From Escherichia coli (GTDB lineage Bacteria > Pseudomonadota > Gammaproteobacteria > Enterobacterales > Enterobacteriaceae), in assembly GCF_003790525.1 (NCBI RefSeq), contig NZ_CP033635.1: DNA of 64,000 nucleotides, one strand, 5' to 3'. Shown one piece after another: positions 22,527-24,422 of the stretch. How positions within the stretch are numbered: position 1 is the first letter of the stretch; every line of letters starts with the position of its first letter. The position numbers and the translations under genes are program-made. The notes beneath the pieces were generated by a model. It was not told where the DNA came from. It ran no database searches and worked only from the letters and a program-made list of their open reading frames with translations.

Positions 22527-23411
22527 ATGTCATTCAGCCATTCTTCCCTCTCCGCACAAGTGAAATCATATCTGACGTTTCTTCCTGAAGAAATTCGCCA
22601 GAAAATCCTTGAACATCTCCACAGTGTTATTCATTACGAGCCCGTGATTGGCATTATGGGTAAATCCGGTGCCGGAAAAAGCAGCCTGTGCAATGCCATT
22701 TTTCAGTCCCGTGTCTGCGCCACGCATCCGCTGAACGGCTGCACCCGTCAGGCTCATCGTCTTACCTTTCAGCCCGGTGAACGAAGAATGACGCTGGTCG
22801 ATCTGCCCGGCACTGGCGAAACACCACAGCATGATCAGGAATACCGGGCACTTTACAGTCAGTTACTGCCCGAACTGGATCTGATTATCTGGATCCTGCG
22901 GGCTGATGAACGTGCGTATGCTGCCGACATCGCCATGCATCAGTTTTTACTGAATGAAGGTGCAGATCCCTCGCGTTTTCTGTTTGTTCTCAGCCATGCC
23001 GATCGCGTATTTCCTGCTGAAGAATGGAACGACACAGAAAAATGCCCGTCCCGTCACCAGGAACTCTCGCTGGCGACGGTGACAGCCCGGGTGGCAACCC
23101 TGTTCCCTTCATCATTTCCGGTACTCCCCGTTGCCGCGCCTGTCGGCTGGAATATTCCGGCACTGGTGTCACTGATGATCCACGCCCTGCCGCCACAGGC
23201 AACCAGCGCGGTTTATTCACATATCCGGGGGGAAAACCGCTCTGAACGGGTCCAGAAACACGCACAACAGACTTTTGGTGAAACCATCGGGAAAAGTTTT
23301 GACGACGCCGTTGCCCGTTTCAGTTTTCCGGCCTGGATGTTACAGCTTCTGCGCAAAACCCGGGACCGCATTATCCACCTGCTGGTCACACTGTGGGATC
23401 ACCTGTTCTGA
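22527..23411 (+). CDS. YeeP/YfjP/YkfA-family GTPase of CP4-type prophage islands
   Basis: 294-aa ORF with P-loop GIMGKSGAGKSSLCNAIF and DLPGTGE motif. Confidence 0.75.
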   Translation: MSFSHSSLSAQVKSYLTFLPEEIRQKILEHLHSVIHYEPVIGIMGKSGAGKSSLCNAIFQSRVCATHPLNGCTRQAHRLTFQPGERRMTLVDLPGTGETPQHDQEYRALYSQLLPELDLIIWILRADERAYAADIAMHQFLLNEGADPSRFLFVLSHADRVFPAEEWNDTEKCPSRHQELSLATVTARVATLFPSSFPVLPVAAPVGWNIPALVSLMIHALPPQATSAVYSHIRGENRSERVQKHAQQTFGETIGKSFDDAVARFSFPAWMLQLLRKTRDRIIHLLVTLWDHLF

Positions 23412-23529
23412 ACGCTCCGGAGTCCCCCGTGGCAACCGTATACCTTTACACGACAACGGATTACGGTAACCACTGCCGTATACCGTCTGTCATTATCAAT
23501 AACACGCTCTTTAATTTCAGAGGTCAGTC

Positions 23530-24207
23530 ATGAATACCAGAATTCTTTTTCCCCTGCTGTTCACTGTGGCATCATTCTCCGCCTCCGCCGGCAACTGGGC
23601 TGTCAAAAACGGCTGGTGTCAGACCATGACGGAAGATGGTCAGGCGCTGGTAATGCTGAAAAATGGCACGATTGGTATTACCGGCCTGATGCAGGGATGC
23701 CCGAATGGCGTACAGACGCTCCTGGGCAACCGTATCAGCATTAACGGTAACCTGATCCCCACATCACAAATGTGTAATCAGCAGACAGGATTCAGGGCTG
23801 TTGAGGTGGAAGTCGGACAGGCGCCGGAAATGGTCAAAAAAGCCGTTCACTCCATAGCAGAGCGTGATGTGTCCGTTTTACAGGCATTTGGTGTACGAAT
23901 GGAATTCACCCGCGGTGATATGCTGAAGGTCTGTCCGAAATTTGTCACATCACTTGCCGGTTTTTCCCCGAAACAGACGACCACTATTAATAAAGATTCC
24001 GTCCTGCAGGCTGCCCGGCAGGCATACGCCCGGGAATATGACGAGGAAATAACAGAAACCGCTGATTTTGGCTCTTACGAAGTAAAAGGCAATAAGGTTG
24101 AGTTTGAAGTGTTCAATCCTGAAGACCGTGCGTACGACAAAGTGACCGTCACGGTTGGTGCTGACGGTAATGCCACCGGCGCCAGCGTTGAATTTATCGG
24201 AAAATAG
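23530..24207 (+). CDS. predicted secreted (periplasmic) protein of unknown function
   Basis: 225-aa ORF with a clear Sec signal peptide ([20 protein letters not shown]) and no lipobox cysteine; occupies the slot where CP4-44 carries the Ag43 (flu) gene. Confidence 0.5.
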
Positions 24208-24212
24208 CCGGT

Positions 24213-24365
24213 ATGTCGGACTGTCACCCTGTTTTATTGCCCGAAGGCCCTTTCTCACGCGAACAGGCGATGGCTGTCACAACAGCTTACCGCAATGTGC
24301 TTATTGAAGATGATCAGGGAACGCATTTCCGGTTGCGTCACCACAATGCTGAAGGGCTTCGGTAA
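24213..24365 (+). CDS. small ORF (50 aa) of unknown function, possibly a gene remnant
   Basis: ATG 24213 to TAA 24363-24365 ([50 protein letters not shown]), directly followed by a terminator hairpin; weak RBS; below the 60-aa track cutoff. Confidence 0.3.
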
Positions 24366-24390
24366 ACCCTCATTCATTTCATCCATCAGG

Positions 24391-24422
24391 CCGCGTCTTC
24401 TCCGTGAGACGCGGCTTTTTCA
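24391..24422 (+). terminator. rho-independent terminator
   Basis: GC-rich hairpin ccgcgtct / agacgcgg followed by cttttt. Confidence 0.6.

Follow-up and report, generated by a model that had tools for sequence, protein, structure and literature searches.

The CP4-44 island of Escherichia coli K-12 has the gene order yeeP', isrC, flu, yeeR, yeeS and onward, and its flu(agn43)-yeeR-irmA operon is under OxyR/Dam control (PMC9431211, PMC3764049). CP4-57, a K-12 island of the same family, carries the yfjR-ypjK-yfjS-yfjT unit, in which a regulator with helix-turn-helix (HTH) and WYL domains is followed by genes for exported proteins of the small lipoprotein or secreted kind. The sole target of YfjR found by genomic SELEX (gSELEX) was its own operon (PMC8249747), and binding was not detected by chromatin immunoprecipitation with exonuclease treatment (ChIP-exo) (PMC8464067). 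Here, a related locus is described from a 64,000-nucleotide stretch of the E. coli chromosome (NCBI RefSeq assembly GCF_003790525.1, contig NZ_CP033635.1), the whole of which is referred to as the window. An identical region is annotated by RefSeq in NZ_CP100530.1. In the window, the place that flu, the gene for Ag43, has in CP4-44 is taken by a gene whose 225-aa exported product belongs to an unnamed family.

The cargo of Ag43 islands is found between a gene for a YeeP/YfjP-type GTPase and a DUF905 or DUF932 gene. Three such islands, compared together with K-12, have the orders GTPase - Ag43 - 838-aa YeeR-like protein - IrmA - DUF905 - DUF932; GTPase - Ag43/Cah - DUF932; and GTPase - Cah - DUF905 - DUF932. 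In every locus examined, the 225-aa gene lies within this same interval. In the window, the left border of the slot is a 294-aa GTPase gene (22527..23411, + strand; PF01926 MMR_HSR1, 2.3e-14; WP_001696588.1, “GTPase family protein”), and the right-hand backbone begins with a DUF932 gene of the YfjQ/YafZ type (24466..25284, +; PF06067, 6.1e-52). E. coli 55989 and 536 and ten more places in E. coli have the gene in the slot, as do loci from Klebsiella and Citrobacter, a K. pneumoniae-type locus, the locus L035 and four GTDB species-representative genomes. Even a relative with only 32% identity (P0071) is found in the order GTPase - WYL regulator - homologue - DUF932. A composite query, made of the Ag43 3' end, the 225-aa gene and the Ag43 5' end, was run over 5426 complete E. 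coli genomes and showed the 225-aa gene nowhere within about 1.3 kb of the end of an Ag43 gene, and its top places were all internally deleted Ag43 genes. Since the interval is the same in all loci and no adjacency to Ag43 was found, the comparison supports a reading of the GTPase-DUF905/DUF932 interval as a variable slot for exported proteins, with flu(-yeeR-irmA) or the 225-aa gene as alternative cargo.

The original prediction, made from the DNA sequence alone, had placed the 225-aa protein where flu would be, and the comparison of K-12 and the three other islands with all of the 225-aa loci agrees with it. It had also spoken of a cargo swap. This holds in the sense of alternative cargo in one slot, but not as a recent one-off or rare event, since the gene is present in about a third of complete E. 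coli genomes. The 225-aa module is old and widespread in E. coli, and it is syntenic in other genera and in relatives with 32% identity. What does appear to be recent is the movement of one form of it: an identical arm, consisting of the GTPase gene, the 225-aa gene and a truncated DUF905 gene, lies beside different chromosomal neighbours (ynjB, cadC, a SIS/CBS gene and flhDC-motAB) and occurs twice in one genome, so the arm has moved or been copied recently. Taken as a whole, the locus is probably best explained as a common, annotated and uncharacterised accessory module of islands of the P4-integrase type (the CP4-44/CP4-57 kind), of which the window carries a reduced copy.

The 225-aa gene itself (23530..24207, +; WP_001097365.1, hypothetical) starts after a 118-bp spacer that follows the GTPase gene (23412..23529, +). 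It is present in 1841 of the 5426 complete E. coli genomes (34%) at more than 95% identity, in up to five copies per genome, and is missing from the remaining 66%; the exact protein is encoded on about 1000 contigs. Homologues of 225-229 aa with 55-65% identity are found in Klebsiella, Citrobacter, Enterobacter and Lelliottia. The ratio of nonsynonymous to synonymous substitution rates (dN/dS) between genera is 0.06-0.15, with dS saturated, and lies at 0.12-0.15 against the Klebsiella and Citrobacter orthologues. Given the conserved length across genera, the low dN/dS and the large number of genomes, the 225-aa open reading frame (ORF) is a real gene under purifying selection.

No match to the protein was found among the models of Pfam (E <= 0.01), NCBIfam, PADLOC and PHROG, and its relatives P0066, P0071 and P0090 likewise have zero matches in PADLOC and PHROG. 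Every source labels the protein as hypothetical, and literature searches on its accessions returned nothing. When 1.84 billion representative proteins were searched exhaustively with the family profile, only 60 matches came back, and a scan of 100,044 species-representative genomes gave six loci, in Citrobacter freundii, Klebsiella oxytoca, Atlantibacter, Trabulsiella and two metagenome-assembled genomes. The family is restricted to the Enterobacteriaceae and unnamed, and the description of the protein as one of unknown family stands.

Profile searches with this family call for some caution. A giant repeat protein of 7945 aa (P0064) scored a profile E-value of 1e-41 through 53 weak matches to residues 147-205 and was rejected as an artefact; its score probably reflects the Thr/Gly/Asp-rich repeat composition of a giant adhesin, summed over weak matches, and not homology. 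Relatives at a greater distance measure 230-490 aa, and their N-termini carry a Sec signal in some cases and a lipobox (L-T-G/A-C) in others. Long relatives, of 377-491 aa (P0081, P0088-P0092, P0098, P0102, P0106 and P0109), mostly have lipoboxes and add a third conserved domain at the C-terminus (NAFCTLDNGK...YIRFNKG.YDYVLL...GIRVYKNG), for which no Pfam match was found. The relative P0066 (32% identity) is encoded at 6001-6693 of a Logan contig (SRR33371453, L023), amid about 25 small, unannotated ORFs on the same strand. Its neighbours include an acetyltransferase and a SleB-type cell-wall hydrolase (Hydrolase_2), and the surroundings look like a phage genome.

The N-terminus of the 225-aa protein, which starts with MNTR and ends in SASA before GNW, has the features of a type I Sec signal, with a positively charged n-region, a hydrophobic h-region, an A-x-A site and no lipobox cysteine. 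The signal peptide occupies codons 1-20 (23530-23589, +), the cleavage site having been assigned by inspection of the sequence, and leaves a mature part of about 205 aa with two domains. Residues S15, A18, A20, G21 and N22 of the signal region are invariant in 19 homologues, which bears out the earlier identification of a signal-peptide protein. In the mature part, two alignments, of 32 and of 34 relatives with identities as low as about 16-20%, show no change at W23 or at the four cysteines C30, C57, C82 and C135. An even number of conserved cysteines in this pattern is what would be expected of a disulfide-bonded extracytoplasmic domain, and disulfides are accordingly predicted.

An AlphaFold2 model built from the 34-sequence alignment has a mean predicted local distance difference test score (pLDDT) of 84.4, with all five models at 82-84. 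The model has two domains: one, of residues ~21-135, is rich in beta structure and contains a single long helix; in the other, of residues 155-224, a helix packs against an antiparallel sheet of four strands. For the first of them, a possible likeness to IalB (PF06776) was considered. A fold search of BFVD returned three unnamed phage proteins of about 150 aa, with E-values of 2e-5 to 5e-4. The predicted C-terminal domain may resemble PepSY/cystatin-like domains, such as those of YpeB, YpmB and the propeptides of M4 proteases, at 9-16% identity. However, this fold is generic: NTF2/VirB8-like folds score about equally, and the 225-aa protein has no match to the PepSY model of Pfam (PF03413). 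The likeness suggests, as a working guess from the model, a periplasmic binding or inhibitor protein.

Although the 225-aa gene and the flu operon share a slot and both have exported products, there is no sequence or domain relation between them. The 225-aa product is a 22-kDa protein of the soluble type and not an autotransporter, with no autotransporter match in Pfam and only two small globular domains in the AlphaFold2 model. Nor does it match the IrmA family (PF18673), to which the IrmA of ETEC1731 matches at 2.1e-37. Kinship to YfjS, YfjT and IrmA was also considered and rejected, as BLASTP gave no relationship.

The control of the gene differs between settings. In E. coli 55989 and 536, an extra segment of about 970 bp between the GTPase gene and the 225-aa gene encodes a 226-aa regulator with HTH_11 and WYL domains, an architecture that is common to this protein, K-12 YfjR and the regulator beside P0071. 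The yfjR unit differs from this arrangement in its position, since it sits after DUF932 and the 225-aa gene before it. The ~970-bp segment is absent from the window, where no WYL regulator gene stands upstream. Among the 5426 genomes, the regulator-less junction is found in 393, against about 1450 with the regulator-type junction. A YfjR-like HTH-WYL regulator gene, which the window copy has lost, stands before the majority of E. coli copies. A scan of the 118-bp spacer for promoters and terminators predicted no sigma-70-like promoter on the + strand and no terminator. If the window gene is expressed at all, RNA polymerase reading through from the GTPase gene might transcribe it, or a promoter that went unrecognised might drive it, and the usual control would be absent in either case. 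Ahead of the WYL regulator genes of 55989 (L002, 7971-8172) and of the P0071 locus (L025, 5059-5249), the spacers share the motif TGCATAATAAC...CATGAAATA.AA just before the regulator start, and this motif may serve as an operator or promoter.

Loci outside E. coli lack the regulator gene and have, in the spacer between the GTPase gene and the homologue, four GATC sites, located near -235, -222, -204 and -160 relative to the start codon. These positions hold in Citrobacter, K. oxytoca, Atlantibacter and Trabulsiella, and an equivalent cluster is found in other Klebsiella and Citrobacter loci and in L035. The clusters lie at 5765-5845 in L019, at ~3760-3840 in L028 and L031, at ~3787-3865 in L032, at ~3759-3795 in L035 and from -235 to -160 relative to position 3501 in L038-L041; there are four sites in most loci and three in L035, with two metagenomic loci included. 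The K-12 agn43 switch reads AAAAC-GATC-AATATCTATTTTATC-GATC-GTTTATATC-GATC, and its Klebsiella counterpart AAAAC-GATC-AATAATAGAATATC-GATC-GTTTTTATC. With the GATC positions fixed, the spacers of the non-E. coli loci align to the agn43 switch at 4.4-6.5 standard deviations above the null. Judged by sequence, a GATC cluster within OxyR-site-like surroundings, as in the agn43 type of switch, is thus found in Klebsiella, Citrobacter, Atlantibacter, Trabulsiella and L035. This resemblance to the Dam/OxyR switch of agn43 suggests that the non-E. coli homologues may be phase-variable.

In this the window differs from both the flu operon and the other genera. The spacers of the window and of 55989 contain zero GATC sites, and their similarity to the agn43 switch is at background (z 0.3-1.6; 0.3-0.8 for the window). 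A decayed switch in the window spacer (TACCGTCTGTCATTATCAAT) was considered and discarded, the similarity not being significant. The window copy consequently has neither of the two control elements, the WYL regulator or the GATC cluster. Across the family, the upstream regions give the appearance of switch-like or dedicated control in most settings, which would fit an accessory protein exposed in the envelope.

Five nucleotides past the stop codon of the 225-aa gene, a 50-aa ORF begins (24213..24365, +; WP_001696589.1, “DUF905 family protein”). It matches DUF905 (PF06006) at 2.4e-14 and 53.6 bits, above the gathering threshold of 22.3, and covers only positions 2-42 of the 70 in the profile. 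An alignment to the DUF905 genes of Ag43 islands and to the 77-aa alleles found in 55989 and 536 shows that the window sequence lacks about 80 bp. The gap costs the gene its 3' third and extends to the original stop codon or close to it, immediately ahead of a conserved terminator. Full-length DUF905 matches the nuclear magnetic resonance structure of YkfF (2hjj, residues 6-74) at 1.7e-28; the 50-aa ORF keeps the first ~60% of this domain, whereas the conserved W-x-W-N-F-E-P-D-A-G stretch is deleted. Literature on DUF905 merely lists the domain in gene tables.

The original prediction had counted the 50-aa ORF as swapped-in cargo, together with the 225-aa gene. Both ORFs are present as it described, within the interval of 22527-24422 that it gave for them, but that interval also takes in the GTPase gene itself. 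DUF905 also follows Ag43 or IrmA in the Ag43 islands and is therefore part of the backbone and not cargo, and the 50-aa ORF is a backbone DUF905 gene from which the 3' third has been deleted. As for its conservation, the match to DUF905 is there, but it is to a partial domain and in a minority allele: the truncated junction is found at >=95% identity in about 96 records, which makes it an allele that has spread rather than a separately conserved small gene. The ORF had further been described as flanked by terminators. On the 3' side, an intrinsic terminator-like hairpin with a 12-bp stem and a T-run (24388..24417, +) closes the 225-aa/DUF905 unit, and its sequence is conserved in the 55989, 536, ETEC1731 and CUVET islands, whatever the cargo. 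On the 5' side, between the 225-aa gene and the 50-aa ORF, the promoter and terminator scan found no terminator.

What the 225-aa protein does has to be judged from these pieces. The reading that is favoured here, tentatively, is that of a periplasmic or envelope binding or inhibitor protein that would have its activity in the cystatin/PepSY-like C-terminal domain; a protease, a wall hydrolase and an incoming toxin are examples of what it might act on. The protein is predicted to be exported by Sec and cleaved after Ala20 (ASA before GNW), and to fold in the periplasm with two disulfides formed by the four invariant cysteines. The gene would be a switchable, envelope-modifying accessory gene and not that of an adhesin. 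Several points weigh against this picture and the slot model behind it. The GATC/OxyR switch is read from resemblance in other genera and is missing from the window; no promoter was found for the window copy, which may be poorly expressed; the cleavage site was judged by eye and not with SignalP; and the adjacency query spans about 1.3 kb around the ends of Ag43 genes and not whole islands. A more specific version, which we regard as doubtful, would make this a new family of switchable envelope proteins on P4-type islands, phase-variable through Dam/OxyR in Klebsiella, Citrobacter and their relatives and WYL-regulated in most E. coli, in which a novel disulfide-rich N-terminal domain would bind a target in the envelope or an incoming one, such as a phage receptor, a toxin or a wall hydrolase.

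The company that the gene keeps might point outside the cell instead, to a secreted or surface factor in host interaction or adhesion that would be a functional analogue of IrmA or Ag43. It shares the slot of both, IrmA directly precedes DUF905 just as the 225-aa gene does, the agn43-like GATC switch is present in other genera, and the gene stands in a virulence island, alongside aerobactin genes and a YadA-like adhesin. However, Pfam finds no autotransporter, Ig/FNIII or IrmA signature in the protein, the BLASTP match to IrmA covers 28 residues only (E 0.012), no dedicated secretion partner is encoded nearby and a Sec signal alone would leave the protein in the periplasm, all of which makes such a role rather unlikely. 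Still less likely is an exclusion or immunity factor of the element, periplasmic or lipid-anchored, that would block a related element, a phage or a toxin in the manner of entry-exclusion lipoproteins, phage proteins of the Llp/Cor type or colicin M immunity. The lipoprotein relatives, the one relative in a phage-like contig and weak fold matches to VirB8-like and colicin-immunity proteins speak for it, but PADLOC and PHROG give no match, the fold matches are generic and the island has no conjugation genes. The window unit could also be cargo in decay, now neither expressed nor of use after the loss of its regulator and of part of DUF905. The missing regulator segment, the truncated DUF905, the lack of a predicted + strand promoter and an island full of insertion sequence (IS) remnants and pseudogenes would all fit, yet about 1000 contigs, with several chromosomal sites among them, have the 225-aa ORF intact and identical, the regulator-less form is found in 393 genomes and the same arrangement is normal in other genera, so that decay too appears improbable. 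Finally, an unrecognised member of a common housekeeping periplasmic family, the possibility that would have undone the original prediction, can hardly be entertained: besides the absence of Pfam and NCBIfam matches, the returns of the profile search and of the species-representative scan are too sparse for such a family, the gene is confined to islands and missing from most E. coli genomes, and the K-12 islands examined (CP4-44 and CP4-57) do not have it.

The island around the slot has the backbone of the CP4-44/CP4-57 type, in line with the CP4-44 comparison of the original prediction. GTPase, DUF932, antirestriction, RadC, DUF987 and CbeA/CbtA genes follow one another in this order on one strand, as established from Pfam matches, the RefSeq annotation of the identical region, the Pfam labels of identical loci and the comparison with K-12 CP4-44 and CP4-57. 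Beyond DUF932, the remaining backbone (25366..29458, +) comprises antirestriction, RadC/JAB, DUF987, a 214-aa hypothetical protein, the YeeU/CbeA antitoxin, the CbtA toxin, DUF5983 and DUF4942. The RefSeq annotation of NZ_CP100530.1, where the region is identical, puts the end of the island before ynjB (29686). The 214-aa ORF (26640-27284, +), between DUF987 and the YeeU antitoxin, is hypothetical in RefSeq, gave no match in Pfam and PADLOC scans and is missing from the 55989 and 536 islands.

Two convergent hypothetical genes, of 291 aa (20599-21474, +) and 317 aa (21471-22424, -), immediately precede the GTPase gene; their ORF ends overlap by 4 bp, and they have zero matches in Pfam, NCBIfam and PADLOC. 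In NZ_CP100530.1 the + strand gene is split by IS1A, and in locus L012 by IS2-type genes. Farther upstream, positions 1-13272 of the window belong to the same island and contain an aerobactin cluster (iutA and iucDCBA, - strand, ~1-6076), a major facilitator superfamily (MFS) transporter gene, several degraded IS elements and a gene for a YadA-like trimeric autotransporter (~11731-13272, - strand). In the near-identical genome DG341-1, iucD is marked as frameshifted. The annotation shows the island to be rich in IS remnants and pseudogenes.

Variable cargo beside a conserved island backbone is to be expected, and the locus offers no conceptual surprise in this respect. For genome annotation, the 50-aa “DUF905 family protein” is to be read as a truncated remnant. 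The most useful by-product of the comparison is the agn43-like GATC switch before the homologues in other genera. The exported 225-aa protein, for which there is neither a name nor a family model nor any literature, is encoded by roughly a third of complete E. coli genomes, many of which come from pathogens. Because it shares a slot with the Ag43/IrmA operon and has a look-alike of an epigenetic switch in other genera, its gene is a cheap and well-defined candidate: these islands may have in it a second envelope trait that is phase-variable or controlled by a regulator. If the doubtful, more specific version set out above were true, the islands would offer two alternative, heterogeneously expressed surface phenotypes at one slot: aggregation through Ag43, or the 225-aa protein.

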